Source: an uncultured Myxococcales bacterium
GTDB taxonomy: Bacteria > Myxococcota_A > SURF-8 > CAYNVS01
Direction of reading: 5' to 3'
NCBI GenBank assembly: GCA_964400725.1
Contig: CAYNVS010000002.1
Location: 7,372-71,371, forward strand
Length of the DNA: 64,000 nt
Of this stretch, positions 3 through 57,840 are shown in pieces. The notes below the pieces were generated by a model. That model was not told the origin of the DNA, searched no databases, and worked only from the letters and a program-made list of their open reading frames with translations. The number at the start of each line of letters is the position of its first letter. The stretch's first letter is position 1. A program made the translations under genes and the position numbers.

Positions 3-1181
3 GGCCGCTGCGAAGAGGTCTGCCCGCCCTTTTTGGCCAAACAGGACTTCTCCCCGCGCAAGCTCATTCAGTCGCTAAAAAAATCCGTGCTGGAACACGA
101 CGCGGCTTTCCTAAAGGCCAAAGCGCAGCCCGCTAAAAGCGTCGGAGCCGCCGCCGAAGCGCGGATGGAAGAAGAGAAGGAAATCGTCGGCAACGCGTTC
201 GATACGGAATACGTTTGGCTGTGCCGCACTTGTACCGCCTGCATGGAAGTCTGCCCCGGATACATCGAGCATATGGATACAATAGTCGAAATTCGCCGCA
301 ACGAAGTTATTATGCAGGAGCGCATTCCGGCGGAAGCGGCGCGCTCGCTTAAAACGCTGGAGCGCATGGGGAACCCCTTCGGCCCGCAATCCACCCGCAA
401 CGACTGGGTAAAGACGCTCGACGCTAAGATAGTGGAAGAAGGCGATGAAGTTGACGTTCTTTACTGGCCCGGCTGCTGCTCCACCTTCGACCCGACCAAG
501 CAGCGCATCGCAAGCGATTTAATTAAACTGCTGCGCAAGTGCAATATCGACTACGGCATTCTTGGAAGCGAGGAAAGATGCTGCGGCGACCCGGCGAGGC
601 TTATCGGTCAGGAACATCTATTCCAGTCCATCGCCAAAGAGACGGTGGAAAAGCTCAACGCCCGCAAGTTTAAAATTTTCCTCACCAGCTGCCCTCACTG
701 CTACAACGTTTTTAAAAACGAATATCCGCAGTTCGGCGGCAATTACAACGTGGTTCACCACAGCGAATTCATTCACGAAATGATTTGGAGCGGCGATTTG
801 AAGCCTGTAATAGGCGAGCGCAGCAACGTAACCTACCACGATCCGTGCTATTTAGGCCGCTACCAGAAAATATTCGATTCCACCCGCGAAGCGATTAAGG
901 CTATACCGGGCAGCAAGCTAGTCGAGATGGCCAACAACAAGGAAAAGAGCCTTTGCTGCGGCGGAGGCGGCGGCCACTTCTGGATGGACATTAAAAAAGG
1001 CGAGCGCATCAACAACCTGCGCGTTCAGCAGGCAAAGGACGTCGGAGCCGACACAATCGTAACTTCGTGCGCGTACTGCATGCAGATGCTCGACGACAGC
1101 GTTAAAATAATGAACATGGACAACGAGCTGCGCGTAATAGACATCGCGACTCTGGCGCTGCGCAGCCTCGGAGAGAACTAG
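3..1181 (+). CDS. Fe-S oxidoreductase of the GlcF/GlpC/HdrD type (4Fe-4S ferredoxin motifs + two CCG cysteine-rich domains); 5' end cut by window edge
   Basis: Frame 3 is open from nt 3 and reads ...CGRCEEVCP at the edge, then CRTCTACMEVCP (CxxCxxCxxxCP). Two CCG-type motifs follow: WPGCCSTFD...ERCCGDP and DPCYLG...SLCCGGGGG. Stop at 1179-1181. The TTG at 33 in the ORF track is internal to a longer gene. Confidence 0.75.
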   Translation, partial: GRCEEVCPPFLAKQDFSPRKLIQSLKKSVLEHDAAFLKAKAQPAKSVGAAAEARMEEEKEIVGNAFDTEYVWLCRTCTACMEVCPGYIEHMDTIVEIRRNEVIMQERIPAEAARSLKTLERMGNPFGPQSTRNDWVKTLDAKIVEEGDEVDVLYWPGCCSTFDPTKQRIASDLIKLLRKCNIDYGILGSEERCCGDPARLIGQEHLFQSIAKETVEKLNARKFKIFLTSCPHCYNVFKNEYPQFGGNYNVVHHSEFIHEMIWSGDLKPVIGERSNVTYHDPCYLGRYQKIFDSTREAIKAIPGSKLVEMANNKEKSLCCGGGGGHFWMDIKKGERINNLRVQQAKDVGADTIVTSCAYCMQMLDDSVKIMNMDNELRVIDIATLALRSLGEN

Positions 1182-1213
1182 TTAATAAAACTTAACTTTC
1201 GGCTACACCGTAA

Positions 1214-1257
1214 AAGCCGCGACGCGGGAATTGGTTCCGCGCTGCGGCTTTTTTTAT
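1214..1257 (+). terminator. Rho-independent terminator after the Fe-S oxidoreductase gene
   Basis: aagccgcgacgcgg / ccgcgctgcggctt imperfect 14-bp inverted repeat with a 9-nt loop, followed by T7. An A-run precedes it, so it could act bidirectionally. Confidence 0.6.
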
Positions 1258-1515
1258 TTCGGCCAGCCGCGCGGACGCCCCTGCGGGTTATAGCGCTTCT
1301 TGAAAGTCTTTTACGATTTAAATTACTTTTCTCGTCCAATCCCTCAATACGTTTTGCCTTCGGCAAAGCGCTTGTGATGCACGGGAATAACTGCGCAATT
1401 TCAACGAATTATAAAAGCAAAAATCCGTGCGCCCCGCGTAAACGCGCAAGCGTTTGTATCGAGGAACTTTCCTGAAATAAAGGACAAAACTTTTGAAAGC
1501 CGCTATTAGCGATAA

Positions 1516-2460
1516 TTACCGCTTGCCGCGGCGTTTTTTATGATGGTCTATGTAAACGTCGGTATTCTGCCGCATTTTCTTCTGCTCGTCCTTGCGGGCG
1601 AAGGCTTCCTTTGCGGCGTTGAGATAAACTTGAGCTATTTGCGGCTTGGCCGAAACCGACACCGCCTTTTTAAAAATTTCAATCGCCTTTTCGGTCAGTC
1701 CTTTTTCAAGCGCGCACCGTCCGTAAAGAACGAAGGCGGCCGTCCACGCATCTTTCGGAATATTCTCGTTCTTTATCATCGGGTCCAGCGTTTTTTCCGC
1801 CTCGTCGTATCTTTCGGCCATAAAATAGGCGTTGGCCAAATCCAAAGTAACGTCCATATAAAGCGCGTCGTTAGGATAATTGGTGAGAAACTCAAGCGCG
1901 TCGGCCTGCGCGTCGTTGAGCCGGCCGTTGGTCATGGAGCAGCGTATCCCTTCCCGCAGAAGCGCCGGCGTATGCTGGTCTTTGGGGAACGATTTGGCGT
2001 ACCGCTTAATAAAAGGCGCCGCGAGCACGCAGTTTTGCGCAAACTGCGTCAGCATTTCCACAAGGCGTATCTGCGCGTATTTTCCATGCTCGCTTGCAGG
2101 GTGGCGCTCGGCGAGCTTAAAGTAATCCTTCAATCCGTCGTTGAGCTTGCTCAACTTGAGCGTATTAATGTCGCCCGCCGCTTTCAGCGACTTCGTTTCA
2201 ACGTCTTTCGCGTCTTCGGCGCCCGCTCCCGCAATAGCCGCTTCGCTCGCCGCCTTCTCGTATTCGACAATAGCTTTGTCCCACAGCTGCTTCTGTTCGT
2301 ACTTTACGGCTCGGTTGTAAAAACGAACGTATATCGGCGGAGTAAGAAGATAAACAATGGCTCCGGCTACGCCGGCCACGCCCATAATTATGAAAAAAAA
2401 CTTAAGCGACGCCCAAATTTTCCCGCCGAAAAGGTCGTGAACTAGGTTATGAGCCTGCAT
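1516..2460 (-). CDS. Membrane-anchored TPR-repeat protein (hypothetical)
   Basis: 314-aa ORF with an N-terminal hydrophobic segment (FFFIIMGVAGVAGAIVYLL) and TPR-like helical repeats (YAQIRLVEML..., LANAYFMAERYDEAEKTL..., AIEIFKKAV...). The opposite-strand ORF 1540..2445 is an antisense artefact. Confidence 0.55.
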   Translation of the reverse strand: MQAHNLVHDLFGGKIWASLKFFFIIMGVAGVAGAIVYLLTPPIYVRFYNRAVKYEQKQLWDKAIVEYEKAASEAAIAGAGAEDAKDVETKSLKAAGDINTLKLSKLNDGLKDYFKLAERHPASEHGKYAQIRLVEMLTQFAQNCVLAAPFIKRYAKSFPKDQHTPALLREGIRCSMTNGRLNDAQADALEFLTNYPNDALYMDVTLDLANAYFMAERYDEAEKTLDPMIKNENIPKDAWTAAFVLYGRCALEKGLTEKAIEIFKKAVSVSAKPQIAQVYLNAAKEAFARKDEQKKMRQNTDVYIDHHKKRRGKR

Positions 2461-2535
2461 TTTTCTTTATTCATAGCGCCTTTAGAGCGCGGCAAACGTC
2501 TCGCGACCTGCCGAACGTCCTACTAAAACGCAAGT

Positions 2536-5076
2536 TTATTCCTCCGTCTCGCCGCCTTCCGGTTCTGTTTTTGCGGCGGTTTCCAGCTGCGCGCCGTTTT
2601 CCTCGCCCGCTTCAAACTCGCCTTCCGCCGCATTTTCGTCGTCGTCGCGCTCGGCGAGTTTTGCAATCGCCGTTACGCGGTTGTTTTCTTCCAGCGCTAT
2701 CAGCCGTACGCCTTGCGTGTTGCGGCCTATTATGCGCAGTTCCTTCATTTTAAGGCGGATTAGTATTCCCTCGCTTGTGATTATCATCAGGTGGTCGTCG
2801 TCGGAGACCTGCTTTATGCCGCGGATGGTTCCGGTTTTCTCGGTAACTTTAAGCGTGATGACGCCGAGGCCGCCGCGAGTCTGCACTCTGTATTCGTCCA
2901 GTTCGGTGCGTTTGCCGTAACCTTTTTCGGTAACGGTCAGAACGCTGGCTCCCTGCTGCAGAACTTCCATTCCGATTACTTCGTCCCCTTCGCGCAGCTC
3001 GATTCCTTTAACTCCGCGCGTCGCTCTGCCGATAGCTCTGACGTCGCTGTCCTTGAACCTTATGCTCATGCCGTTCTTGGTGGCAAGCAGTATCTCGGCG
3101 TTGCCGTCGGAGAGCCTTACGTCGATAAGCTCGTCCCCTTCGTCCAGCACGACCGCGACGATTCCCTTGCTGCGCGCGTTCTCGAACTGGGTTATTTCCG
3201 TCTTCTTAATGGTTCCCTGCCGCGTCGCGAAAATAAGATACCGGTCGGGCTTGAATTCTCTGATCGGCACGATTGCCGCTACGGTCTCGCCTTCCTCCAT
3301 CTTCAACAGGTTGACGATGGCTTTTCCTTTTGTGGCGCGCCCTCCCTGCGGTATGTCGAATACCCGCAGAGCGTAACACTGCCCCTTTCCGCTGAAGACC
3401 AGCACCATATCGTGCGTGCTTGCGACGAACAAATCGGTTACGATGTCGTCTTCTTTGGTCGCCATACCGGTCTTTCCTCGCCCTCCGCGTCGCTGCGCGC
3501 GGTACAGGCTCACCGCGTTGCGCTTGATGTAGCCGGTGTGAGACACGGTTACCACGACGTCCTCTTCTACGATTAGGTCTTCGAGGCTGAATTCCTTCGT
3601 TTCCGAAACGATTTCAGTGCGGCGCGGGTTGTCGAACTCGTTCTTAACGTCGATAAGCTCCCGCTCTATCACTTCCATTAATTTAATCTCGCTAGCGAGA
3701 ATTTCCTCAAGGCGCAGGATGAGAGCGCGCACGTCGGCGAGTTCCGCCTCTATTTTGTCGCGCTCTAAGCCGGTTAAGCGCTGAAGTCTAAGGTCGAGTA
3801 TCGCCTGCGCCTGCCGCTCCGAAAGAGAAAATCGGGTTATGAGTCCTTCCTTGGCTTCCGGCGGCGTTTTTGACGAGCGGATTATTTCGATGACTTCGTC
3901 GATGTTGTCGATGGCTATTTTAAGGCCGATTAAAATATGCTCGCGCTCGCGCGCCGCCTTCAGATCGAACTGCGTGCGTCTGGTTACAACCACGCGGCGG
4001 TGTTCTATAAAGTGCTGCAAAACCTGTTTTAAATTAAGCACTTTCGGCTGGCCGCCGACGATGGCCAGCATTATAATGCCGAAGCTTGTCTGCATCGGCG
4101 TCAGCTTGTAAAGCTGGTTGATAATAACCTGCGGCGTCGCGTCGCGCTTCAGCTCCATCACTATTCGCATACCGTCGCGGTCTGACTCGTCTCTAAGCTC
4201 CGAAATTCCTTCTATTTTCTTTTCTTTTATCAATTCGGCTATTTTTTCGATTAACCGCGTCTTATTGAGCTGATAAGGGATTTCGGTTACTACAATCGAC
4301 TCTCTTCCGCTGCGCTTGTCGCGCTCTATCATCGCTTTGCTGCGAATTTGCAGGCTTCCGCGGCCGGTTCGGTACGCCTCGCGGATTCCTTCGTCGCCGT
4401 AAATAATTGCGCCCGTCGGAAAGTCCGGCCCCTTTACATGCTCCATCAGCTCTTCGATTTCCGCGTTCGGGTTGCGGATGAGACTGACGGTCGCGTCGAT
4501 TACTTCGCCGAGGTTGTGCGGCGGTATGTTTGTGGCCATTCCAACGGCTATTCCGGCGCTGCCGTTCACCAGAAGGTTGGGTATGCGCGTCGGCAGAACG
4601 AGCGGCTCTTCGAGTGTGTTGTCGTAGTTAGGCCCCCAATCGACGGTGTCTTTTTCCAAATCGTTCAACAACGCGGTAGAAACTTTTGCGAGCCTTACCT
4701 CCGTGTAACGCATGGCGGCGGCCGGATCTCCGTCCACCGATCCGAAGTTTCCCTGCCCGTTGACCAGCGGGTAACGCATTGAGAAGGGTTGAACGAGGCG
4801 GACGATTGTGTCGTAAACCGCGCTGTCGCCGTGCGGGTGATATTTACCTATTACGTCTCCGACGATTCTGGCGCTTTTACGGAAAGGCTGGTTGTAAAAG
4901 TTCTTTCCTTCGTGCATGGCGTAAAGGCAGCGCCTATGAACCGGTTTAAGTCCGTCGCGGACGTCCGGCAGCGCGCGGCCTATAATGACCGACATGGCGT
5001 ATTCCATGTAGCTGGTCTTCATCTCCTCTTCGATGGACACCTTAATCTTGTGCTGCTGATCCATGGGGTTCATCAA
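2536..5076 (-). CDS. gyrA: DNA gyrase subunit A
   Basis: 846 aa. N-terminus matches GyrA closely ([34 protein letters not shown], active-site region AAAMRYTE). C-terminal beta-pinwheel repeats and an acidic tail are present. Confidence 0.97.
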
Positions 5077-10689: not shown

Positions 10690-10747
10690 TCCGACAAATC
10701 CCTATAGCGGTAAACCCTCCTCTCAAACCTGTTCAACCCTGCACTCG

Positions 10748-10782
10748 CCCCTCTTTGCCGATCAAAGAGGGGCTTTTCGTTT
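10748..10782 (+). terminator. Rho-independent terminator
   Basis: cccctcttt-gccgatc-aaagagggg perfect 9-bp stem with 7-nt loop, followed by cttttcgttt. Confidence 0.7.
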
Positions 10783-10831
10783 GAGAATTTATTTTGAAAG
10801 CGGCTTGATTGTCGTGTATATTTTAACTTCA

Positions 10832-11284
10832 ATGCTGCGCAGAAGATTTATCGTTCCCTCTCTTGGGGTACTGTTCGCGCTGGCGGCGTTCGTCTATCCG
10901 CCTTCTCTTAACTATTTATGGACGTTTTTGCGCACTCCGTACGATTTGTTCGTCGCCGACGCCATGGGACTGGAGATGCTGGCGCTCGAAAAAGAGATTT
11001 GGGCGTTTTACGACAAAGAAGGAAAGTTTCCGATGGAGCCGCACGTTTACGCCTTAATGGCGGGAATGCAGCGGTTTGAATTGCCGCAGCCAAATACGCG
11101 GCTTAAATTCAAAACTCTCGATCCGTGGGGAAAGCCTTATTGTTACAGAAGACTGACGCGGCCGGAAGGGTACGAGTTGTCCAGTTCCGGCCCCGACGGC
11201 GTAACCGGCACGAAAGACGACGTTATTTTCAGGCGGACGACGGCAAACGGCAGGGACGAGCCGCAGTTTTGGAAAAGCCCATGA
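10832..11284 (+). CDS. Type II secretion GspG-like pseudopilin C-terminal domain protein (no canonical prepilin leader)
   Basis: C-terminal DPWGKPYCYRRLTRPEGYELSSSGPDGVTGTKDDVIF matches the GspG/pseudopilin signature (DPWGxPYxY...GPDGxxGTxDD). The ATG at 10832 is preferred over the TTG at 10781, which lies inside the upstream terminator. The N-terminus is hydrophobic but lacks a G/F(T)LIE prepilin cleavage motif. Confidence 0.5.
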   Translation: MLRRRFIVPSLGVLFALAAFVYPPSLNYLWTFLRTPYDLFVADAMGLEMLALEKEIWAFYDKEGKFPMEPHVYALMAGMQRFELPQPNTRLKFKTLDPWGKPYCYRRLTRPEGYELSSSGPDGVTGTKDDVIFRRTTANGRDEPQFWKSP

Positions 11285-11814
11285 AAACTAAAAACGAATA
11301 TAAAAAGATGCGCAGGCGGTACATCGTCAATAAACCGTTTCAATACCGTTATATATTGCGCATGCTGGCGCATCAAATCGCCGCCGCCGCTTTCGCCGGA
11401 CTTTTCGGCGTCTTTTTGGTGGTGTACGTCTTTCATTCGACGGCCGTAAGCGCCGGAGTTTGGAGAAACGTCGTCGCCGCCGGCAGCGTTATTATGCTGA
11501 CTCTGATTTTTTTAACCGCGACGCTGCGCGGCGTTTATTTGAGCCACCGCATAGCCGGGCCTATGAAGCGCTTTGAAATGGCTTTCGGCAAGGTTAAAAA
11601 CGGCGACTTCTCGATAAGAATAGAATTGCGCAACAAGGACGAAATGCACGATCTCGCCGGCGCCTTTAACAAAATGATGGACGAGCTTGACAGCCGCAAC
11701 TCCCTCATTTTGGATTATATGGCAAAAGCTAAAAAGAAAGCGGAGGACGGGGATAAGGAGGGATGCGTCCGCCTGATAGGCGAGGCCGAAGCCTTGATTG
11801 AAAAAACGGAATAG
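11281..11814 (+). CDS. HAMP-domain membrane protein
   Basis: The ORF track entry 11125..11814 has a long Arg-rich N-extension overlapping the previous gene. The start MKTKNEYKK at 11281 is more plausible. Two TM segments followed by HAMP (RIAGPMKRFEMAFGKVKNGDFSIRIE...LAGAFNKMMDEL). No output domain. Confidence 0.55.
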   Translation: MKTKNEYKKMRRRYIVNKPFQYRYILRMLAHQIAAAAFAGLFGVFLVVYVFHSTAVSAGVWRNVVAAGSVIMLTLIFLTATLRGVYLSHRIAGPMKRFEMAFGKVKNGDFSIRIELRNKDEMHDLAGAFNKMMDELDSRNSLILDYMAKAKKKAEDGDKEGCVRLIGEAEALIEKTE

Positions 11815-11833
11815 TCCATAAGACAAATTCGCA

Positions 11834-12472
11834 ATGAATCGACTGAAAATTTCATCTCGGCTGATCAGCGCGGTTGTAGTTTACGGCTCAATGCTTTTAG
11901 CGGCGTATTTATGGACGCGGCGCGAAGGCCGTTCCGATATGTTTTTCATGCCGGAAGCGAAGAACCCTTTTGCGCAGGCCGGATTCCATATTCATATTTT
12001 GGCGGGAGTTATCGCCGCGGTCAGCTGCGCAGCCGCGCTTTCGCTGCTTTCGCAAAAATTTGAGCGGCTGCGTTTGCTGGACGAATTTATGACGTCCATG
12101 GCGAAGGATTTCGGACGCGTCGAACTGGTTATAATTCTGGCCTTAGGAAGCGTCGTCGAGGAATATTTTTTTAGAGGAGCGCTGCTGCCGAGTTTTGGCA
12201 TAGCGGTTCAAGCGGTAATTTTCGGTCTTCTTCACGCCGGTCCGCTGCGTTATTTCAGGCTTTTGTATTTATGGAGCCTTATCGCGGCGGCTTTCGGCCT
12301 GCTGCTGGGCTGGCTGTTCATTTCCACCGGAACGCTCGCCGCGCCCATCGCCGCGCATCTTACCTTTAACGCAATAAGCGCGGTTCAAATACAAAAACGG
12401 GTCGCATCCGGCAAAGTGCGGGCTCCGGACGAAATTATCGCCGACATCGAACCGGACGACGACGACTGGTAG
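11834..12472 (+). CDS. CPBP-family (CAAX/Abi-type) intramembrane glutamic protease
   Basis: All three CPBP motifs are present: EEYFFRG (EExxxR), FGLLHAG (FxxxH) and AHLTFNA (HxxxN). Multiple TM helices. Acidic C-terminus. Confidence 0.8.
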   Translation: MNRLKISSRLISAVVVYGSMLLAAYLWTRREGRSDMFFMPEAKNPFAQAGFHIHILAGVIAAVSCAAALSLLSQKFERLRLLDEFMTSMAKDFGRVELVIILALGSVVEEYFFRGALLPSFGIAVQAVIFGLLHAGPLRYFRLLYLWSLIAAAFGLLLGWLFISTGTLAAPIAAHLTFNAISAVQIQKRVASGKVRAPDEIIADIEPDDDDW

Positions 12473-12865
12473 AGACGGCCTGCCGCGGCGGCTTGCGTTT
12501 ACGCGTATTATCCCGACTGCATTAGCGGAATTTTTAAAGTTCGTTGCAGCGCGGGCATTTATCAATCGACTGCCGCTCTTTCGCTTTCTTTGCGCTCCCA
12601 AAGAAAGGCCGGCTCCGCAAAACCGCGGCGCGGCGAACGGGCTTTGAAGCGCGGCTTTTCTTGCCGCAGCCCGCCCGTAAGCGAAGGAAGAATACGGTAT
12701 TAATTATAACTTCGCCTTCTCGGCGTTTTTTGCCAAAACTATAGATTGAGCGCGGTTTAACCGCAAATTAATACCGATATGTTTGCCGCCTTTTACAATG
12801 CGTGTTATCTTTAATCGGCAGTAAAATATGTATGTTGCGAATTTTTATGCAAAAAGGCGGATATT

Positions 12866-14941
12866 ATGGCAAATAGAATTTTTAAAACTAGTCGGGTAAA
12901 ATTGCCGAGCGCGCCGGTTATGTTTGTCTTCGCGGCGGTCTGTTTATTAACTCTTCTTCCCGAACGAAACGCCTCGGCGTGGGGCGCCGGAATGCACGCG
13001 ACGCTTAACGCCCGCGCCTACGAGCGCATGACTCAAAGATGGAAACGGGCGATAGACCCCGACTTGATTATTTACGCCGCGTGGACGCCCGACGCTTGGT
13101 ACATTCTCGCGGAGGAAATGCTCTCCGGATCGTGCGGAATAGCCTGCGGCGCCCCTGACGCCTCGATGAGCAACGAGTGTTTCAACGACTACATACCCGA
13201 CAGATATTATTCGTACACGCGGCATTTATTGGCGAACGCCGACGGATTGAAGGCAATATCGTACGCGCTGGGATACGGCGGACACGCGGTCGGAGATTAC
13301 CGCGGACATTTGGAATACATTATACCGGACTGGAGAGACCCGCAGGGCAACGGAACGATACCGATTTCGCGCCACACTTTCGCGGACAGCGTCGGCGATA
13401 CGCTTGCCTTCAACGTTGAGGGGCTTTACGGTTACCCGACAAAATACCTTACAGACAAAGCTCTTTACGGCTATCCGAGCGAAATATTAAGCGAAGCGAA
13501 CTACGCCTCGACCGGCTCGCGCAATCCGTACGGCGGATTGGTTTTAATCGTCGAGACAAACTACGCCGGAAAGCGCAAGGCGGTTTTTAAAGGAATACTG
13601 GACGAGACGGCGAAAGGATTGTCAATATCGTCGGTCGTCTCCATGATGGACGGTTCGGCGCTTAGTTCCGTTTCCGAGGGGCTGGTTGCCGCGCTATACG
13701 GCTTGAACGATTACGACGGCGGCGGCCGTCCCTTTCCCGTCGTCATAGAAAACGGTTCCGTCGCGATTAATTGCTCGACCGATTTGAAGCAGCGCATGGA
13801 GTCCGAGGCGGGCTTCGGCAATTCGATGCCGTGCCAGGTAACTTTGGCCAACGTAAGCGGTTTGGCCCAATGGACTAGTTTTCTCAAACCGGCGGGCGAC
13901 GAGGGACAGGAGGTTGTCGTTGACAAAGAAAAGGTCGCCGAATGGATGCGAAATCTCGCGGTTGAGTTCAAATCGGGCGACGTATATCTCGACGACCCGC
14001 ACGTTTTTCAAATCGACGCTCAGACCGGAAAATCGAAGGCCGACCTTAAGGGAATTGACGGCCGCAGTTTCACTCTCGGCAAAACCATGCCGGAGATACT
14101 GGACGAAGTTTTGGATAAAAATATACAGGATATAACCGACCGCCTATTGGAAAACCCCCACGTAATCGGCACGATTTTGCAAAGCAAGGCGGGCGCGCTG
14201 GACAAATCGCGATTCGTTTCCTTCGGCTTCCCGCTCCGTCCGCGCCTGACCGCTTGGGGGGCCGCGGTAAAATACAAAGGAGCCGACGTAAGAACGCTGC
14301 CGGAGGCTCCGGGCGTTTTCGCCGACTTTGAAATTCCGTTCGATATGAGCCCGAAGGCGGAGAACCTTGCGCCCGAAATGGTTTACCCTTATTACGTCGC
14401 CGTAATTCAGGCGGACTCGGCGAAGATGAAAGGGAAGGGAACGCTGGAAGCGGAGGTCGTTTACGAAGACGCTTCGGGCGCGGAGCTTGAAAAAAAGGCC
14501 TCGTTCTCGCTGAATCTCGAAACCGGCGAAATGAGCGGCGGGGAAGGATTCGCGAGCTTGGAAAAAAACGACGCAGGCTACGCCGTTAAAATTCTGGCCG
14601 ATAATTCAAACGGCGGCGGATACTTTTACGCGAAAGATTCGGCTAAGGCGGCGCTTGTTGTAAAGATTAAGCTGGCGGCAATCGACCCTGCAAATCCTCC
14701 GTACGATTTGCAGCTGAACGCGGCAGTTCAACCTTACTGCGAAAAGCCCGATTTGTCGAAGAGCGAAACGCCGTCCGCGGACAACTCGGCTTGTCCTCTC
14801 GCGGAGCCGAAGGCGGAAGAAAAGAAAGAAACCGGCGGCGGATGTTCGTCGAACGCTTCGCCGCTTTCGGCGCTATTTTCGGTTTTGTTGGCGGCCTTTT
14901 GCGCGGCGAGAGCCTGCTGGCGCCGACCGCGGGAATATTGA
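12866..14941 (+). CDS. Secreted zinc-hydrolase-like protein (S1/P1-nuclease or phospholipase-C-like N-terminus) with MYXO-CTERM-like C-terminal sorting tail
   Basis: The signal peptide is predicted to be cleaved before WGAGMHATLNARAY, which resembles the N-terminal Trp/His zinc site of P1 nuclease/PLC (WGxxGH). It is followed by ~600 aa of unknown domains. The C-terminus GGGCSSNASPLSALFSVLLAAFCAARACWRRPREY has the GC motif, hydrophobic helix and basic cluster. Confidence 0.7.
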   Translation: MANRIFKTSRVKLPSAPVMFVFAAVCLLTLLPERNASAWGAGMHATLNARAYERMTQRWKRAIDPDLIIYAAWTPDAWYILAEEMLSGSCGIACGAPDASMSNECFNDYIPDRYYSYTRHLLANADGLKAISYALGYGGHAVGDYRGHLEYIIPDWRDPQGNGTIPISRHTFADSVGDTLAFNVEGLYGYPTKYLTDKALYGYPSEILSEANYASTGSRNPYGGLVLIVETNYAGKRKAVFKGILDETAKGLSISSVVSMMDGSALSSVSEGLVAALYGLNDYDGGGRPFPVVIENGSVAINCSTDLKQRMESEAGFGNSMPCQVTLANVSGLAQWTSFLKPAGDEGQEVVVDKEKVAEWMRNLAVEFKSGDVYLDDPHVFQIDAQTGKSKADLKGIDGRSFTLGKTMPEILDEVLDKNIQDITDRLLENPHVIGTILQSKAGALDKSRFVSFGFPLRPRLTAWGAAVKYKGADVRTLPEAPGVFADFEIPFDMSPKAENLAPEMVYPYYVAVIQADSAKMKGKGTLEAEVVYEDASGAELEKKASFSLNLETGEMSGGEGFASLEKNDAGYAVKILADNSNGGGYFYAKDSAKAALVVKIKLAAIDPANPPYDLQLNAAVQPYCEKPDLSKSETPSADNSACPLAEPKAEEKKETGGGCSSNASPLSALFSVLLAAFCAARACWRRPREY

Positions 14942-15082: not shown

Positions 15083-16165
15083 ATGTTGTGGCCGTTTAAC
15101 AGACAACGATTAAGCATTTATAAAACGAACCCCGAATTTCTCACTACAATCGTCGGCGACATGTGCCAGCGCATTGAGAATTTTCAAGGGTACGTTTCCG
15201 TCGTCGGAGACGACAAGAACCTCACAATACTCGTAACCGAAGGCAAACCGGTTTACAGCGCGCTTTGCACGATAAACGGAGAAATTCTTCCCCTTCAAAC
15301 CTGCTCGCCGGTCAACGCGCTAAAAGATTTCGGCGTTGAAGCGACGATACTCGTCATGGAGCTCGATCAGCTGCTCGCGGCAGTCATGTCTATTTTTTTC
15401 TCCACGCCGCCCGACATAAGCGCCGCGGGCGACGTCATGCACTATTCCACCGGGTTGGAAGCCGCCGCCGCGGGAGGCGAGCTGTTCGCGTTAAATCTGG
15501 TTCACGACGGAGTTTCTATGCCCGCCGTGTTCGAGCGCGGCAATCTGTCGGCTTGGTTTTACTTCGACCGCGAAAAGGGAGAATTCGTACAAACCAAGGA
15601 CGAAGCTCTCTTCAGAGGCTTCGTAGAGGCGAATCACGCTTCGTGCAAATTCGACTTTTACCTGGGAGCGGCGGGCGAGCCGAAACCGTTTGAAGTAAAC
15701 GAAGAGAGCGATCCGTTCATACAAACCGCGAAAACGTATTTCGCGCTTTACGAAGAAATACGACGCGTGATTATCCGCGCTACCGGCCAGCGCGGCAACG
15801 CCGAGTTCCAACAGATTTTAAACGCTTTCCGCGAAAAATACCCTCCTTTATATCAAGGGCTTTTCGTAAATCCGGAGACGAACGAAATATGGTGGGAACA
15901 GCTGCTTGAAAACCGGAAAAAAATCACGCATAAATTCCGCTACGATTCCTACTTCCTCTATTTGGACGAATTCCTTCTCACCCTCATCCGCAAGCTGTTT
16001 CAAACCGCCGGCGTGCAGGGAATAGTGGAAATTATCCGATTCCTAGACAAACGCAGAAGGGTCGAGTTCCAGCCTTCCTACAACATGAGCAAAATACTTT
16101 ATACAAAGCTCAATAATCTGCTCAGGCTGGACCGTTACACGAACGTCCAGCCCGCGGGCAAATGA
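15083..16165 (+). CDS. Hypothetical cytoplasmic protein
   Basis: 360-aa ORF with no recognisable motifs. Its stop lies 4 nt before ksgA, so likely co-transcribed. Confidence 0.5.
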   Translation: MLWPFNRQRLSIYKTNPEFLTTIVGDMCQRIENFQGYVSVVGDDKNLTILVTEGKPVYSALCTINGEILPLQTCSPVNALKDFGVEATILVMELDQLLAAVMSIFFSTPPDISAAGDVMHYSTGLEAAAAGGELFALNLVHDGVSMPAVFERGNLSAWFYFDREKGEFVQTKDEALFRGFVEANHASCKFDFYLGAAGEPKPFEVNEESDPFIQTAKTYFALYEEIRRVIIRATGQRGNAEFQQILNAFREKYPPLYQGLFVNPETNEIWWEQLLENRKKITHKFRYDSYFLYLDEFLLTLIRKLFQTAGVQGIVEIIRFLDKRRRVEFQPSYNMSKILYTKLNNLLRLDRYTNVQPAGK

Positions 16166-16169
16166 GCTT

Positions 16170-17042
16170 TTGCGCGGCCTCATGTCGCAGTGGCAAAATC
16201 CGATTGAAGTTTTAAAACATATCGACGCCCGGCCGAACGGGTCGCTGTCGCAGAATTTTATGATTTCTCAGGACGCGGCGCGGAAGGCGGCCTCGGAACT
16301 GGGCGGCGTCCGCCCCGGCGAAACCGTTTTGGAAATCGGCGCGGGAACCGGAAGCCTCACCGCGGTTCTTGCGGAAAAATTCCATAAAGTAATCGCCGTC
16401 GAAATAGACGCTCGGCTTGCGGCAAACCTTGCGGAGCGGTTCGAGGGCTCCAACGTCGAAGTTGTAAACGCGGACGCGCTTAAACTCGACTTTTGCCTGA
16501 CGGCGAAGGAAAACGGAGGCGCGATGCGGTTCGCGGGCAACCTGCCTTACGACGCATCCACGCCGATTATAGAAAAATTTCTGCGCGAAAAAGACGCCGC
16601 GAGCGGAGCCTCTTTTTTGCTGCAAAAGGAGTTCGTCGCCAAAATGACGACGCCGCCCGGCCGCAGAGAATCTTCGCCCGCCGCAATCTTTTGCGCCGTT
16701 TACTTCGAGGCTAAAAAAGGCGCGGCCTTTCCGCCGTCGGTTTTTACGCCGCAGCCTAAAGTCGATTCGGCCGTGTTGAATTTGTTTCCGAGAGAAAATC
16801 CGCTCATCGAAGCGCGGCCGCGGGATTTGTACAAACTGATTTACGCCGCCTTTTCCCGAAGAAGACGACTGCTTTCAAACAACCTGACATCCGCGGGAAT
16901 CCCAAAAGAGGCGGTCGAAGCGGCTTATCGCGCCGCGTCCCTGCCCCGCGGCCTGCGCGCCGAGGAAGCCGACTTTAAAACGTGGCGGGCTCTTTATGAA
17001 GAGCTTGAAAAGAGTTTGCCAAATCTTCCCTTCAGGCGGTAG
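16170..17042 (+). CDS. rsmA: 16S rRNA (adenine1518/1519-N6)-dimethyltransferase
   Basis: SAM-binding VLEIGAGTGSLT and the hallmark GNLPY motif. Whole-length KsgA/RsmA architecture. TTG at 16170 or ATG at 16182 as start. Confidence 0.85.
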   Translation: MRGLMSQWQNPIEVLKHIDARPNGSLSQNFMISQDAARKAASELGGVRPGETVLEIGAGTGSLTAVLAEKFHKVIAVEIDARLAANLAERFEGSNVEVVNADALKLDFCLTAKENGGAMRFAGNLPYDASTPIIEKFLREKDAASGASFLLQKEFVAKMTTPPGRRESSPAAIFCAVYFEAKKGAAFPPSVFTPQPKVDSAVLNLFPRENPLIEARPRDLYKLIYAAFSRRRRLLSNNLTSAGIPKEAVEAAYRAASLPRGLRAEEADFKTWRALYEELEKSLPNLPFRR

Positions 17043-17089
17043 CGCCTTATTTATCGGCGTCGGCTTTTTTTTGCGAAACGAGTTCATCC

Positions 17090-20000
17090 ATGAAAAAATC
17101 GCTGTTCATAATCGCCTGCGCCGCTTCAATCGCGGCGGCGGTCTCGGTCGGCGGGGGCTCGGAACAATCCGCTCGCCCGTTTATGCTTTACGACGGCCGC
17201 AGAATTGAAATGAATTACGTTTACGACCGCGTAAGCGTAATTTCGGAGGACGCTTCGGAAGAAGATTTGAGCCGCCGTTTATCGGAGATCGACGACCGCG
17301 TCGTTTCGGCAAAAAAAATAAACGGCTCCGGCGTTTGGAGCGCGGCTTTCGCCGAACCCCTGTCCGAAAAAAGCTACATTTCCGCGGTTTCCGCCTTATC
17401 GCGCGCGCGGGGGGTTAAAACGGCGCAGCCGGTTTATGCAATAGGCGAGAAGGCGCTCTTTTATCCAAACGGCGAATTGTTCGTCAAATTCAAACCGGGA
17501 ACTACTTTCAACGACGTTCTCGGCTTCGCGCAAAAGCGCGGACTTAAGCCTCTGAGCTCTTTAGACTTCTCTCCGTTCGTCCGGGTTTTCGAGCTCAAAG
17601 CCCCGTCGCAGCGCGCGCTCGACGCGGCCAACGGAGCGCATTCCAGCCCGTTTGTTGAGTGGGCTGCGCCTGAGTTCGCCCATAACGTTCAAAAAAAGTT
17701 CGTCCCAAACGACCCGTTGTTTCCAAACCAGTGGCATCTGCGCAACGTCGGACAGAACGGCGCGACCGCGGGCGCGGACGTCAAAGCCGACAAAGCGTGG
17801 GATAAAACCAAGGGGGAAGGCGCGGTAATCGCGGTCGTTGACGACGGAGTAGATTGCCCGCATCCTGATTTGGCGCCAAACTGTCTCGACGGATACGATT
17901 ACGTTGACGACGACGACGAACCGGCTCCGGGCGAGTACGACGGCCACGGCACTTGCGTCGCGGGAACGGCGGCGGCGAAAGGAAACGACGGGATAGGCGT
18001 TTCGGGAGTATGCCCGGAGTGCAAAATTATTCCGATACGCCTTTTGGGCGAATACCTTTTGACTCGGGACGAAGCGAACGCGTTCGTTTTTGCGGTTAAA
18101 AACGGCGCATGGGTTATTTCAAACAGCTGGGGCGTTCCCGACAACAACCGCGCCGCCGTCCCCATCCCCAAGCCGACCGCCGAGGCGGTAGATTACGCGC
18201 TTAATTACGGGCGCGGCGGGCTTGGAACTTTGGTCGTTTTCGCGGCGGGCAACGGCTCCGAGCCGGTAAATACGGACGGCTATCCGGCGTATAAAAACTC
18301 GATCGCCGTCGCGGCGAGCGACGATCAAGGAATCCGCTCGGATTACAGCGACTACGGCGCCGAGATAGAAATCAACGCGCCTTCCAGCGGCGGAATCAAC
18401 GGAATAACGACGGTCGATAACGCCGGCTCTTCGGGCTACTCTTACGGCGATTACGCGGACGATTTCGGCGGCACAAGCGGCGCGGCGCCTCTGGCGTCGG
18501 GCGTTTACGCGCTTATTATGTCGGCGCGCCCCGGCTTGTCTTGGAAACAGGTAAAAAAAATCGCCCGCGATACCGCCGACAAAATAGACGCGGCCCGCGG
18601 CGCGTACGACCAAAACGGCCGCTCAAACCTTTACGGTTACGGCCGCATTAACGCCCAAAAAGCGGTTGAAGCCGCCTTATTATTCGACGACGGCTGCGTT
18701 CCGCAAACGGAAATCTGCGACGCTCGCGACAACGACTGCGACGGCTTGAAGGACGAAGGGCTTGTATGCTACGTTTGCGCTCCCTCGGAAGAAATATGCG
18801 ACGGCATGGACGACGACTGCGACGGATACGTCGACGAGGACGGCGTCTGCGGGGCGGGCAAGGCCGGAACCTGCATGACTTGCGCGGTCAATTCCGATTG
18901 TTTTGAAGGCGTATGCCTTGAGCTGTACGGCGACCCTATGCACAAATATTGCGTCCGCAGGTGCAACCCCGATAAAACCTGCCCAAACCCGGATTTATAC
19001 GCCTGCAACGGCTCGTACTGCCTGCCCCGCAACAAGAGCTGCGACCAAACGCAGTGCCTCGGCAGACCGGAACTTTGCAACAACCTTGACGACAACTGCA
19101 ATTCGCGGACCGACGAAGGGAACGTCTGCTGCGTTCCTACCGTCCCGCCCGAAGAGATATGCGACGGGCTCGACAACGACTGCGACGGCAAAACCGACAA
19201 CGTTGACGTTTTAAAAAATCCGCCTCCGATAACCTGCCTTTATAAAGGCGTATGCGAAGGAACCGCGCCTAAATGCGACCAAGCGCTGTGGATTTGCGAA
19301 TATCCGCAAACCTACGAGCCTGAAGAAATATCGTGCGACGGGTTCGACAACGACTGCGACGGTTGCGTCGATGAAAACTGCGCGGCGCGGGACGGCGACG
19401 AAGAAGCGGAAGACGACGCCTCGGAGGCGGAACTCGACGACGACGACGGAGAGTTATTGACGGACGCAGACGAGGACGAGGCTCAAACGGAAGCGGACGC
19501 GAAGCCTGAAATCGAACCGCCGCCTGAAGAAGCCGCCGAAACCGAAAACGCCGACTTGGCCGACTTGGCCGACTTGGCCGACTTAACCGACTTCGACGAA
19601 GAGACGCTTGACGCGCCGGAAGAACGGGACGACGCCGAATTAGAATACGCCGATAACTCTAAGAAAAAATCATCATCCGACGGATGCGCCGGGCAGTCGG
19701 ACGGCTTCGCCTTCGCCCCGCTCGCAGTCGCGGCCGTATTGTTTATTTCGCGAAAAAAAATTTGCGCGCGCAAAACAAATAATATCTTTTGGGCGTTCGC
19801 CGCGGCGCCGGCGTTTTTCGCTTTCGCCTCGGCGTCGTGCGCTTCCGGTCTAAACGACGAGGCAAATTCTAGTTGTGAAATCGCCGTAACGTACGAAATG
19901 TACGAAAAGAACGTTTCGGTCGCTTACGCCGCGCAGAATCCTTTCGACAAAGAAGAAGCGGAAGTTTACGCTAAAATAAAACGTCCGGACGGCGCGGAGC

Positions 20001-21592
20001 AAAAACTCTCCGCGTTTTATTATCAAGGTTTTGACCGCGCGTTAAAAAACGGCTCGGAGGTTTTGACAAAAAACGGCGAGCCCCTCTGGAAGCTGCGGTT
20101 TACGCCGAACGCCGCGGGAAGATACGAGCTTTCTTTTTTCGTAAAAACGGCTTTGGGCGAGTCGTTTATTGAAAAAAGCTGCATTGAGGCGAAAGCTTCC
20201 GCCGAGCATAAAAAAGGGTTTGCGCGCGCAAGCGAATCCGGCGCTCGATGCGTAGAATTCGACGACGGAAGCTCTTTTTTCGCGATAGGCGAAAATATGG
20301 GCTGGTACGACTCCCGCGGAACGGCGGCGTACGAAGATTGGATTAAAAAACTCGCGGATAACGGCGGCAATTACATTCGGGTATGGATGTCGAGCTGGGC
20401 ATTCGGCCTTGAATGGACGAGCGCGGACGGCTCGGCGTCTCCCGTTCTCGGAAACTACTCGCATAGGCTGGACAGAGCCTTTCAGCTTGATTATCTTTTT
20501 TCATTGGCCGCAAAATACGACGTTTACGTAATGCTCTGTCTCGTAAATCACGGCGCTTTTTCAATCAACAACAATTCCGAGTGGGACGCCAATCCGTACA
20601 ACGCGAAAAACGGCGGTCCGCTCGACTCGCCGTCAAAATTCTTTACCGACGAGGAAGCGAAGAAACTGACGAAGCGAAAGCTCGATTATATAGTCGCGCG
20701 GTGGGGTTACAGCCCCAACCTGCTGGCGTGGGAGCTTTTCAACGAAGTCGATTTGACGGACAAGCCTAAAGCCGAGCCCATAGCGGCGTGGCACGAGGAA
20801 ATGGCCGCTCATATTAAAGCCGCCGACCCCTACGGCCATATGGTTACTACAAGCAACTCGGGCTTCATAGCCTCGCTTATAGGATTGGACGACGCTCTTT
20901 TTTCTCTGCCGAACATCGACTTTTCGCAGTTTCACATTTACGGATACGAAGGCTTCGACCCCGATTTCACCGCGGTTATACCTAATACGATAAACGATTT
21001 CGTCTCGCGCTTCGGCAAGCCGTGTCTTGCGTCGGAGCTCGGCGTAGATTACCGCGGCCCCGCGGAAACCAAAGCGCGCGATCCTTACAACGTCGCCTTC
21101 CACGATATTCTGTGGAGCGGCTTAATCGGAGGATCTTTTGGAGTCGGAATGCACTGGTGGTGGGATAACGTCGTCGATCCCGGCGACCTTTATTTTCACT
21201 TCGCGCCGATTGCTAAAATAGTGGAAGGAATAAATTTCAGCGAAAGCGGCCTGAAAAAAATAGACGCGCTCGCTTCGGCTGACGAAGACGCAAAGCTGTC
21301 GGTTTTCGCCCTTTGCGGAAAAAGCGTATGCCTGGGCTGGGTTAAAAACGCAAAAAACGTTTGGACGAACCGCGCCGACGACTCGCAGACCAAAGCTCTG
21401 ATAACCGGCGCAAAAATCGAGCTTTACGGCCTGGAAGGCGGGACGTGGAGCGTCAAATTCATAAACGCTTACGACTCGTCCGTCTCTCAGGGCGCGGCGA
21501 TTAATGTCGGAAGCGGCGGAAAGGCGTCGTTCGAGCTTCCTTCCTTCGTTCAGGACGCCGCGTTCCGCATGGAGAAAGGAATTAAACCGTGA
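17090..21592 (+). CDS. 1500-aa composite ORF: S8 subtilisin-like protease + MopE-type Cys/Asp repeats + acidic linker + MYXO-CTERM-like tail + signal-peptide-like segment + GH5-like TIM-barrel glycoside hydrolase (probable fusion or frameshifted pair)
   Basis: Signal peptide present. S8 triad motifs VIAVVDDGVD, HGTCVAG, GTSGAAP. Five CxxDNDCDG-type repeats (ICDARDNDCDGLKDEG etc.). Asp/Glu-rich linker with ADLADLADL. Then SSDGCAGQSDGFAFAPLAVAAVLFISRKK (sorting-tail-like), immediately followed by KTNNIFWAFAAAPAFFAFASASCASG (signal/lipobox-like). C-terminal domain has NGGNYIRVWM and LAWELFNEVD, resembling the GH5 NEP region. See the finding on the A8 tract. Confidence 0.6.
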   Translation: MKKSLFIIACAASIAAAVSVGGGSEQSARPFMLYDGRRIEMNYVYDRVSVISEDASEEDLSRRLSEIDDRVVSAKKINGSGVWSAAFAEPLSEKSYISAVSALSRARGVKTAQPVYAIGEKALFYPNGELFVKFKPGTTFNDVLGFAQKRGLKPLSSLDFSPFVRVFELKAPSQRALDAANGAHSSPFVEWAAPEFAHNVQKKFVPNDPLFPNQWHLRNVGQNGATAGADVKADKAWDKTKGEGAVIAVVDDGVDCPHPDLAPNCLDGYDYVDDDDEPAPGEYDGHGTCVAGTAAAKGNDGIGVSGVCPECKIIPIRLLGEYLLTRDEANAFVFAVKNGAWVISNSWGVPDNNRAAVPIPKPTAEAVDYALNYGRGGLGTLVVFAAGNGSEPVNTDGYPAYKNSIAVAASDDQGIRSDYSDYGAEIEINAPSSGGINGITTVDNAGSSGYSYGDYADDFGGTSGAAPLASGVYALIMSARPGLSWKQVKKIARDTADKIDAARGAYDQNGRSNLYGYGRINAQKAVEAALLFDDGCVPQTEICDARDNDCDGLKDEGLVCYVCAPSEEICDGMDDDCDGYVDEDGVCGAGKAGTCMTCAVNSDCFEGVCLELYGDPMHKYCVRRCNPDKTCPNPDLYACNGSYCLPRNKSCDQTQCLGRPELCNNLDDNCNSRTDEGNVCCVPTVPPEEICDGLDNDCDGKTDNVDVLKNPPPITCLYKGVCEGTAPKCDQALWICEYPQTYEPEEISCDGFDNDCDGCVDENCAARDGDEEAEDDASEAELDDDDGELLTDADEDEAQTEADAKPEIEPPPEEAAETENADLADLADLADLTDFDEETLDAPEERDDAELEYADNSKKKSSSDGCAGQSDGFAFAPLAVAAVLFISRKKICARKTNNIFWAFAAAPAFFAFASASCASGLNDEANSSCEIAVTYEMYEKNVSVAYAAQNPFDKEEAEVYAKIKRPDGAEQKLSAFYYQGFDRALKNGSEVLTKNGEPLWKLRFTPNAAGRYELSFFVKTALGESFIEKSCIEAKASAEHKKGFARASESGARCVEFDDGSSFFAIGENMGWYDSRGTAAYEDWIKKLADNGGNYIRVWMSSWAFGLEWTSADGSASPVLGNYSHRLDRAFQLDYLFSLAAKYDVYVMLCLVNHGAFSINNNSEWDANPYNAKNGGPLDSPSKFFTDEEAKKLTKRKLDYIVARWGYSPNLLAWELFNEVDLTDKPKAEPIAAWHEEMAAHIKAADPYGHMVTTSNSGFIASLIGLDDALFSLPNIDFSQFHIYGYEGFDPDFTAVIPNTINDFVSRFGKPCLASELGVDYRGPAETKARDPYNVAFHDILWSGLIGGSFGVGMHWWWDNVVDPGDLYFHFAPIAKIVEGINFSESGLKKIDALASADEDAKLSVFALCGKSVCLGWVKNAKNVWTNRADDSQTKALITGAKIELYGLEGGTWSVKFINAYDSSVSQGAAINVGSGGKASFELPSFVQDAAFRMEKGIKP
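19550..19594 (+). repeat. 9-bp tandem repeat (GCCGACTTG x3 perfect + 2 degenerate) encoding ADLADLADLTDF
   Basis: Direct inspection of 19550-19594 within the acidic linker of the 17090 ORF. Confidence 0.8.
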
Positions 21593-54951: not shown

Positions 54952-55737
54952 TTGAAACCTAACAGGCTTACAAAATCGTTCAAAGGAATCCCGTACGGGA
55001 AAAATCGTCTTTACGAGCTTTTCGGCGCGGGCGGCGACTCGCCGGATTGGAGCGCCGCGCGAAGCATGCTTTACGCGATATTGATTCCCGCGCTTTTATC
55101 ATTCTGGCTCAACAAGGTTTACGGAAACCTTCTGCTCGGCGCTTCGACCAAAGCGTGGTTCAACGTCTGGCTGTTCCTTTACGGAATGAAAAAAGATTTA
55201 TATCACTTAAATCAGTTGAACGACATCGCCGGAGCCTTTTTGAAAGGCGTCTTCGCGTGGGGAATGTACCTGGTCGTTTTTACCAAAATGAAACGACGCG
55301 GCTTTTTCGCGCAGTTCGCCGTAATGGCGGCGGCGGCGGCGCTTTACGTTTTTATGTGGTTTATAATATCCGGCTTCCGCTGGACGCTTCTTATAAGGTT
55401 TATTAGTCATAATTACGCGTTCGTTATATTAGACGCTTTCACAACCGCAATATTTCCGGCGTTCGTCGTTATTTCATTCGGAGAGATTAAAAGATCGGGC
55501 AGGGCGGTATTGACGGCTTTCCTCGGCTACTACGTATTCGTCGCCTGCGTTTACACCGTTTATAAAATCGTTCATCTTTACTACGCGTATAAAATCATCG
55601 ACGCCGTCGATTTGCACTCCGTGGCCTTTTCGATCTTTTTCGCCGTATTTAAGGGACTGACGGCATACTTTATAATCCGCTTTTTGCGCCCCGATTACAT
55701 GAGCCGCGTAAATCCGGAGCCGGTTTCTTTAAAATAA
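54952..55737 (+). CDS. Polytopic membrane protein, hypothetical
   Basis: 261 aa with 6-7 hydrophobic helices and no recognisable motif. Start uncertain. Confidence 0.4.
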   Translation: MKPNRLTKSFKGIPYGKNRLYELFGAGGDSPDWSAARSMLYAILIPALLSFWLNKVYGNLLLGASTKAWFNVWLFLYGMKKDLYHLNQLNDIAGAFLKGVFAWGMYLVVFTKMKRRGFFAQFAVMAAAAALYVFMWFIISGFRWTLLIRFISHNYAFVILDAFTTAIFPAFVVISFGEIKRSGRAVLTAFLGYYVFVACVYTVYKIVHLYYAYKIIDAVDLHSVAFSIFFAVFKGLTAYFIIRFLRPDYMSRVNPEPVSLK

Positions 55738-57785: not shown

Positions 57786-57840
57786 TTCTACCATGATGCA
57801 CTTTTTGTTCATTATATTCATTATGTACATTTTGTACATT
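57786..57840. promoter_or_regulatory. AT-rich 9-bp periodic repeat block with paired TGTACA palindromes upstream of the 55794..57680 gene
   Basis: ttcattata/ttcattatg/tacattttg/tacattatt and TGTACA-ttt-TGTACA at 57823..57837, in the 158-nt gap between the radical-SAM gene and the secreted-protein gene. Confidence 0.4.

Follow-up and report, generated by a model that had tools for sequence, protein, structure and literature searches.

MYXO-CTERM-like C-terminal sorting tails in an uncultured Myxococcota_A bacterium and a neighboring CPBP protease that is probably a bystander

Cysteine-containing C-terminal sorting signals, together with the CPBP-family intramembrane proteases (myxosortases, Mrt) that serve them, were defined only in 2023-2025, and the class has so far been described from Myxococcota, Bradymonadales, some Proteobacteria, Synergistota, and Thermococcales. 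Across all four Cys-tail systems, the cognate enzymes are closer to each other than to their paralogues, which gave no signal, and the processing is performed by one Mrt-type enzyme and not by its paralogues; moreover, when one housekeeping enzyme sorts many clients, its gene is not expected near theirs, and the 34-residue models used to find the tails are lineage sensitive and need lineage-specific rebuilding and curation (Haft, bioRxiv 10.1101/2023.06.07.544157). Here we describe a stretch of 64,000 nucleotides (hereafter, the window; assembly GCA_964400725.1, contig CAYNVS010000002.1, positions 7,372 to 71,371 of the forward strand) from an uncultured Myxococcales bacterium placed by GTDB in Myxococcota_A, in which three exported proteins (clients) carry tails of this kind and a gene for a CPBP protease precedes one of them. 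As judged from their sequences, the tails belong to the MYXO-CTERM class of Cys-containing tripartite signals, of which they represent lineage-specific versions. We consider it fairly likely that they are cleaved by a housekeeping protease encoded elsewhere in the genome and that the adjacent CPBP, which lies in a separate operon, is probably a bystander.

The original prediction, made from the letters of the window alone, had proposed that three exported proteins share a tail consisting of a Gly-Cys motif, a hydrophobic helix, and a basic cluster, and all three tails were confirmed, two of them terminal and one internal (Table 1). The 691-residue protein (client 1) ends in GGGCSSNASPLSALFSVLLAAFCAARACWRRPREY, its tail Cys being residue 660 (nt 14843..14845), while the 628-residue protein (client 2) ends in SSGGCAAGCVEWLAAAAIAGLAAARRRF, which contains two Cys in a GCxxGC-like arrangement without a spacer; the third tail, DGCAGQSDGFAFAPLAVAAVLFISRKK, lies within a 1500-residue open reading frame (ORF). 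Judged by eye, all three proteins have signal-peptide-like N-termini. A homology search with the 691-residue protein returned 14 homologues with 43-87% identity, every one of which carried a Cys tail (14/14), and in these tails [G/D/E/S]-[G/S]-C is followed by 5-10 polar residues, a hydrophobic stretch of ~15 residues, and lastly an Arg/Lys cluster. C660 was an invariant column among the 15 members of this family, and the acidic linker before it was not alignable. In an alignment of 19 tails drawn from the window and from its relatives, Cys was the sole invariant column and the preceding Gly reached ~90%, with only composition being conserved outside these two positions. The same tail was also found on unrelated cargo in relatives, namely a GH38 alpha-mannosidase (L079) and a 1499-residue protein (L080), bringing the cargo classes that bear it to the phospholipase C (PLC)-like family, the S8 protease, the 628-residue protein, the GH38 mannosidase, and the 1499-residue protein. 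A conserved Cys motif across orthologues had been named beforehand as the test that would distinguish such tails from plain membrane anchors, and the Cys was kept in 19/19 tails. Since the Cys is invariant and an ordinary anchor would need none, we take the tails to be a genuine sorting signal and not ordinary anchors.

The specificity of the tail was assessed with two detectors, which replaced an earlier crude one that gave ~1% false matches on spurious ORFs. The first, a strict pattern, required [GSDNEQ][GSDEA]C, a run of 12 or more hydrophobic residues, and an R/K cluster near the end; applied to ORFs of at least 300 residues, it matched 2/35 window ORFs and 8/70 ORFs in the loci of the 691-residue family, two of the latter being extra cargo, and 0/666 ORFs in unrelated controls (1.2 Mb, 72 genomes). 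A lineage tail hidden Markov model (HMM), trained on 15 tails of other organisms and run on 2210 ORF ends, returned the three window tails as its best matches outside the loci of the 691-residue family, with E-values of 8.6e-7 (25.4 bits) for the internal tail, 1.5e-3 for the 691-residue protein, and 3.8e-3 for the 628-residue protein, the next unrelated ORF standing at E=0.42. A metagenome scan with the profile of the 691-residue family yielded 5 loci, with few extra tails and no CPBP.

As to the class of signal, an NCBIfam scan of the 19 isolated tails matched TIGR03901.2 (MYXO-CTERM) in 8/19 and TIGR03382 (GC_trans_RRR, also named MYXO-CTERM) in 7/19, and the C-terminal end of a MYXO-CTERM-anchored protein family in 11, JDVT-CTERM in 3, and Synerg-CTERM in 2. 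The TIGR03901.2 cutoff of 20 bits was passed by P0017 (26.5), P0020 (29.2), and P0021 (20.9), and the TIGR03382 cutoff of 15.85 by P0021 (21.9), the 1499-residue protein of L080 (19.8), and P0015 (16.0). The profile check proposed with the original prediction therefore came out in part: some orthologous tails pass the TIGR03901 cutoff, whereas the window tails do not. The existence of the tails, their conservation, and their family relationship are directly visible in these comparisons, and the MYXO-CTERM-type reading of them is borne out by the tripartite architecture, the Cys kept throughout, the unrelated cargo, and the orthologous tails above curated cutoffs.

Table 1. Coordinates of the tail-bearing genes, their tails, and the CPBP operon in the window
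Feature	Position	Strand	Remarks
GspG-like membrane-anchored protein, 150 aa, first gene of the operon	10832..11284	+	PF08334, E=1e-6; without prepilin cleavage motif
HAMP-only small protein with two transmembrane segments, 177 aa	11281..11814	+	PF00672, E=5e-11
CPBP (Rce1-like) glutamic intramembrane protease (predicted), 212 aa	11834..12472	+	PF02517, E=3e-13
Client protein 1 gene, 691 aa, exported	12866..14941	+	signal peptide; weak PLC-like N-terminal region, beta-sandwich C-terminal region
Client 1 sorting tail	14834..14938	+	GGGC, spacer SSNASP, hydrophobic helix, WRRPREY
1500-aa ORF with internal tail	17090..21592	+	S8 subtilase, MopE-like Cys-rich repeats, DUF5060/glycosidase-like domain
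Internal sorting tail DGCAGQSDGFAFAPLAVAAVLFISRKK, residues 864-890 of the 1500-aa ORF	19679..19759	+	
In-frame segment ICARKTNNIFWAFAAAPAFFAFASASC	19760..19840	+	basic loop, hydrophobic core, lipobox-like Cys (ASAS|C)
Client protein 2 gene, 628 aa, exported	55794..57680	-	no family match for protein body
Client 2 sorting tail	55797..55880	-	SSGGCAAGC, helix, RRRF

The best-surviving alternative is the original prediction itself, in which the CPBP gene upstream of client 1 encodes a cognate, MrtX-like enzyme that cuts the Cys tails; its GspG-like and HAMP neighbors are then possible accessories that connect it with type II secretion. The protease is indeed present with the three catalytic motifs intact, as had been proposed (EEYFFR at residue 109, FGLLH at 130, and HLTFN at 175). 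These motifs speak for the role, as do the gap of 393 bp to the client gene and the fact that CPBP proteases serve all known Cys-tail systems (bioRxiv 10.1101/2023.06.07.544157; PMC11980579). The GspG-like operon partner points the same way, MYXO-CTERM and Synerg-CTERM sorting being tied to type II secretion (PMC11980579). Against it stand the myxosortase models, which gave 14 bits for Mrt_core (NF040914; cutoff 100), 21.8 for MrtJ (75), 13.9 for MrtS (130), and 10.7 for MrtP (250), with higher scores from the non-Mrt models ABC_perm_CPBP (38) and Rv0804 (29), whereas the known cognates (MrtX, C, P, J, and S) are more similar to one another than to their paralogues. An exhaustive phmmer search against 1.84 billion representatives gathered a coherent subfamily of ~200-residue CPBPs, with P0028 (39% identity, E=3e-33) and P0029 (34%, E=1e-29) as the best distant members. 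The subfamily is found in metagenome-assembled genomes (MAGs) named by NCBI as Polyangia, Myxococcota, or Deltaproteobacteria, a distribution in favor of the cognate role; however, the 10 members scanned reached at most 36 bits with Mrt_core and scored best with non-Mrt CPBP models. The AlphaFold2 (AF2) model of the protease was all-helical, with a predicted local distance difference test (pLDDT) value of 93.2, and a Foldseek search of it against PDB placed SpdC (6u0o) and Rce1 (4cad) among the top matches at E=0.14-0.58, which is not significant and was not used as evidence. By its model scores, this CPBP is not a recognized myxosortase.

The genomic context was likewise examined from both sides, and the adjacency was directly seen not to be conserved, as a CPBP next to a tail-bearing gene occurred in this species only. 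Flanks of the 691-residue family were searched with the subfamily HMM over 118 kb at seven loci, including the short L081, and a CPBP was found in 0/7; in particular, none lay in the flanks (at most 10 kb on each side) at the six distinct loci L079, L080, L082, L083, L085, and L086, of which L083 has the same sequence as L084 and L087. Conversely, the strict tail was absent from 85 kb around five CPBP-subfamily loci and from L095, which was scanned separately, and no tail-bearing ORF occurred in the flanks of the CPBP homologues at L088, L090, L092, L095, and L006. The L006 homologue (35% identity) was set aside as uninformative, its context looking unrelated and holding no tails. Both the tail and the CPBP subfamily were present in the window organism and on one contig of a relative (ctg38446l, 1.15 Mb), a co-occurrence that favors a link, with the tail protein P0294 at ~1.053 Mb and the nearest CPBP homologue, P0033, at ~0.823 Mb; the ~230 kb between them speak for separate units. 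On contigs of 5.98 (ctg13255c), 5.18 (ctg24741c), and 2.37 Mb from tail-bearing relatives, no member of the CPBP subfamily was seen among the matches listed (120 of 148), which counts weakly against a link given the word prefilter of that search. Tails occur on ~3-7% of genes (3 of ~45 window genes, and 2-3 extra among ~90 neighbors in relatives), so that the chance of a client being one of the two neighbors of any gene is already ~6-13%. The position of the CPBP beside client 1 is most likely a coincidence. With scores far below the Mrt cutoffs, adjacency in one species only, and an operon of its own, the MrtX-like role found no support; nothing in the evidence favors tying this CPBP to the tails over chance adjacency, and we regard such a link as unlikely.

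The CPBP belongs to a separate, conserved three-gene operon, in which it is the last gene. The genes of this operon overlap or abut (10832..12472); directly upstream of it, a strong terminator spans 10747..10773 and a promoter-like site spans 10794..10822, and at its other end the 393-bp gap sets it apart from the gene of client 1. Conservation of the operon was observed directly: the gene order is identical in L004 (an 86% relative), L090, and L095, across three further lineages, with 52-64% G+C content. In L090, the counterparts share 41% (GspG-like), 33% (HAMP), and 39-46% (CPBP) identity with those in the window, and in L095 a partial gene at the start of the locus ends with the same motif as the GspG-like protein. 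A full-text literature search did not find a GspG-like/HAMP/CPBP module described. In L004, two lspA genes (Peptidase_A8) and lgt (966..3095) are situated ~3.4 kb upstream of the operon, where the window has other genes.

The same operon could be imagined as a non-Mrt sorting module, in which the CPBP would cleave the tails in concert with a HAMP protein and with the membrane-anchored pseudopilin-like protein, the latter handing clients to type II secretion, the 1500-residue ORF giving rise to two lipid-anchored surface enzymes; this we hold to be distinctly unlikely. If true, a CPBP would have been recruited independently to C-terminal sorting, along with accessory factors, and the 1500-residue ORF product would be split by cleavage after the internal tail Cys and by lipoprotein-type processing at ASAS|C.

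It is more improbable still that the tails are plain C-terminal anchors on the inner membrane, undergoing neither Cys modification nor cleavage. This would suit the window tails, which fall under the curated MYXO-CTERM cutoffs, and the orthologue at L083, L084, and L087, which has lost the Arg cluster while the gene persists. Yet a Cys is unneeded for anchoring, and it is kept while the rest of the tail drifts; Gly/Ser/Asp-Gly-Cys after a disordered acidic linker fits MYXO-CTERM, and the unrelated cargo and the internal copy before a second export signal point to a shared recognition signal. That the tails belong to Synerg-CTERM, with an MrtS-type enzyme processing them, is largely refuted and hardly credible, since, although the 628-residue tail alone scores 25.6 bits against TIGR04564 (cutoff 22.5) and the CPBP can be aligned almost end to end with the small MrtS model, the full 628-residue protein falls to 18.6 bits, below the cutoff, only 2/19 tails match TIGR04564 (versus 8 for MYXO-CTERM and 7 for TIGR03382), most tails have a spacer between Cys and helix and are without the defining invariant Pro, the helix of the 628-residue tail likewise has no Pro, and the MrtS score is far under its cutoff.

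For MYXO-CTERM-class tails cleaved by a housekeeping protease encoded elsewhere, a mechanism can be modeled on Myxococcus (Guo, Haft and Wall 2025; PMC11980579), and we infer all of its biochemical steps by analogy. The client proteins would be exported by Sec, after which the tail helix would retain them in the inner membrane with the Arg/Lys cluster on the cytoplasmic side. The invariant Cys would then be modified, probably by lipidation, with Lgt proposed as the acyltransferase, and cleavage directly C-terminal to this Cys would fall to a housekeeping CPBP-type intramembrane protease, whose gene most likely lies in another part of the genome. Surface display would follow, probably via a type II secretion system.

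Several observations weigh against this reading. None of the three tails of the window itself reaches the TIGR03901 or TIGR03382 cutoff, and two of them have Pro or Glu at the helix edge, unlike classical MYXO-CTERM, whose helix is free of Pro and charged residues and which frequently has a double Cys of the GCGC type. In the 628-residue tail GCAAGC is followed by Glu, and the 691-residue and internal tails have Pro near or in the helix. No Mrt-type gene was seen in the 64-kb window or in the flanks of relatives (at most 10 kb). In a scan of genome contigs, GyrA was closest to Desulfuromonas MAGs at only 63% identity, so that the usual Myxococcota/Bradymonadales enzymes need not apply to this host; the scan gave no close relative and no usable synteny. 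Finally, the pseudopilin-like gene that shares an operon with the CPBP could still hint at sorting linked to type II secretion.

The internal tail is set within an ORF whose order is signal peptide, S8 subtilase (PF00082, E=4e-52), MopE-like repeats, acidic linker, internal Cys tail, second signal-like segment, and DUF5060/glycosidase-like domain. Directly after the tail, RKK-ICARKTNN, a hydrophobic stretch, and ASAS|C together resemble a lipoprotein signal (ICARKTNNIFWAFAAAPAFFAFASASC), with neither a stop codon nor a standard start codon between the tail and this segment, and comparable boxes (AVSC, LFSC, and AAGC) are found at other lipoprotein-like starts in the window. The ORF looks like two former genes that were fused, one for a tail-bearing S8 protease and the other for a lipoprotein-like DUF5060/glycosidase protein. 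Its predicted topology is self-consistent (helix out-to-in, basic loop inside, helix in-to-out), which suggests fused genes whose products may still be separable by two processing systems. MXAN_5598 provides a precedent for an internal MYXO-CTERM arising from gene fusion (PMC11980579). A run of eight A at 19752..19759 makes a sequencing artifact, such as an assembly frameshift, possible; the Logan assembly (L001) is identical here but may share reads.

Regarding the cargo, the original prediction had named a secreted Zn-hydrolase-like protein and an S8 protease, and the latter was confirmed by the PF00082 match, whereas the former rests solely on a sub-threshold match of the 691-residue protein to PF00882 (zinc phospholipase C; 22.9 bits, threshold 26.8). 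For the signal peptide of the 691-residue protein, the predicted cleavage site is ASA|WGAGMH (window 12866..13000), which would leave Trp at the mature N-terminus, presumably like that of zinc phospholipase C and of P1 nuclease enzymes. The motif WGAGMH is kept throughout the family. The AF2 model of this protein had a pLDDT of 70.7, and Foldseek against PDB gave no significant match to it, only jelly-roll-like partial matches, while a search of PDB sequences with the family profile found nothing. The body of the 628-residue protein had no relatives in Pfam, NCBIfam, or PDB sequences. The 628-residue client gene is neighbored by a convergent gene for a 261-residue multipass membrane protein with no family match (54952..55737) and, upstream, by a radical SAM gene (57839..59128).

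Some further features of the window and its relatives were recorded. In the sequence shared by L083 (7085..9280), L084 (9881..12076), and L087 (2..1717), the orthologue of the 691-residue protein keeps GDGC and the helix start and ends in 30 unrelated residues with the Arg cluster gone, and may have a frameshifted or decaying tail. Many N-terminal lipoproteins in related genomes, such as those at L090 (4593..6611), L092 (5473..7227), and L094 (12504..15452 and 15581..17800), have an Asp/Gly-rich acidic linker directly after the lipobox Cys, and these linkers mirror those ahead of the C-terminal Cys tails. Within the window, a giant ORF of 4137 residues (31295..43708) begins like a lipoprotein (...LAVSC) and carries no Cys tail, and the housekeeping genes comprise gyrA, lysA, an aspartokinase gene, and a gene for an ATP synthase subunit. 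The window sequence is also present in metagenomes, namely Logan SRR6476076 and JGI 3300022666 and 3300023203.

These tails would extend the class of Cys-containing signals to an uncultured lineage whose own tails the curated models miss, and would add new client families to it, i.e., the PLC-like protein family, the S8 protease, and the GH38 mannosidase. They also advise caution, in that a CPBP gene beside a client is not evidence of joint function in a many-client system, while the GspG-like/HAMP/CPBP operon offers a modest new entry point to the largely unexplored biology of bacterial CPBPs.

Compared with described systems, the tails are most like MYXO-CTERM, which is served by MrtX, MrtC, or MrtP in Myxococcota and Bradymonadales. 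They share with it the Gly-Cys motif with an invariant Cys (sometimes two), the helix and the Arg/Lys cluster, the disordered linker before the tail, the N-terminal Sec signal, many unrelated clients of hydrolase or adhesin type per genome, and, as noted for MXAN_5598, an internal copy. They differ in that the window tails score below the model cutoffs and have Pro or Glu at the helix edge, in that the host DNA has ~53% G+C content, and in that no Mrt-type enzyme was seen in the available DNA, the neighboring CPBP not being an Mrt member. JDVT-CTERM with MrtJ also has a Cys tail of about this length that includes a spacer, and it is the one known case of a CPBP adjoining its client, which is the picture that the original prediction drew. 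However, each genome with JDVT-CTERM has a single client, the helix contains a near-invariant Asp-Pro, and adjacency holds in 16/17 cases, unlike the many clients, the absence of a DP motif, and the adjacency in one species found here, where MrtJ scored 21.8 bits against 75. Synerg-CTERM, which is linked to type II secretion and served by MrtS, a small CPBP of ~170 residues, has a Ser/Gly-rich motif ending in Cys with the helix directly after it, as in the 628-residue tail; the tails described here differ from it in that they have no invariant helix Pro and mostly possess a spacer, and the MrtS model scores far below its cutoff. As for the CPBP itself, its closest counterparts may be the non-MrtX CPBP paralogues of Myxococcota, two of which occur in M. 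xanthus: they are small, have intact motifs, reside in genomes with Cys tails, and show no sequence signal tying them to tail processing. Unlike the M. xanthus paralogues, the CPBP described here sits in a conserved operon with GspG-like and HAMP partners.

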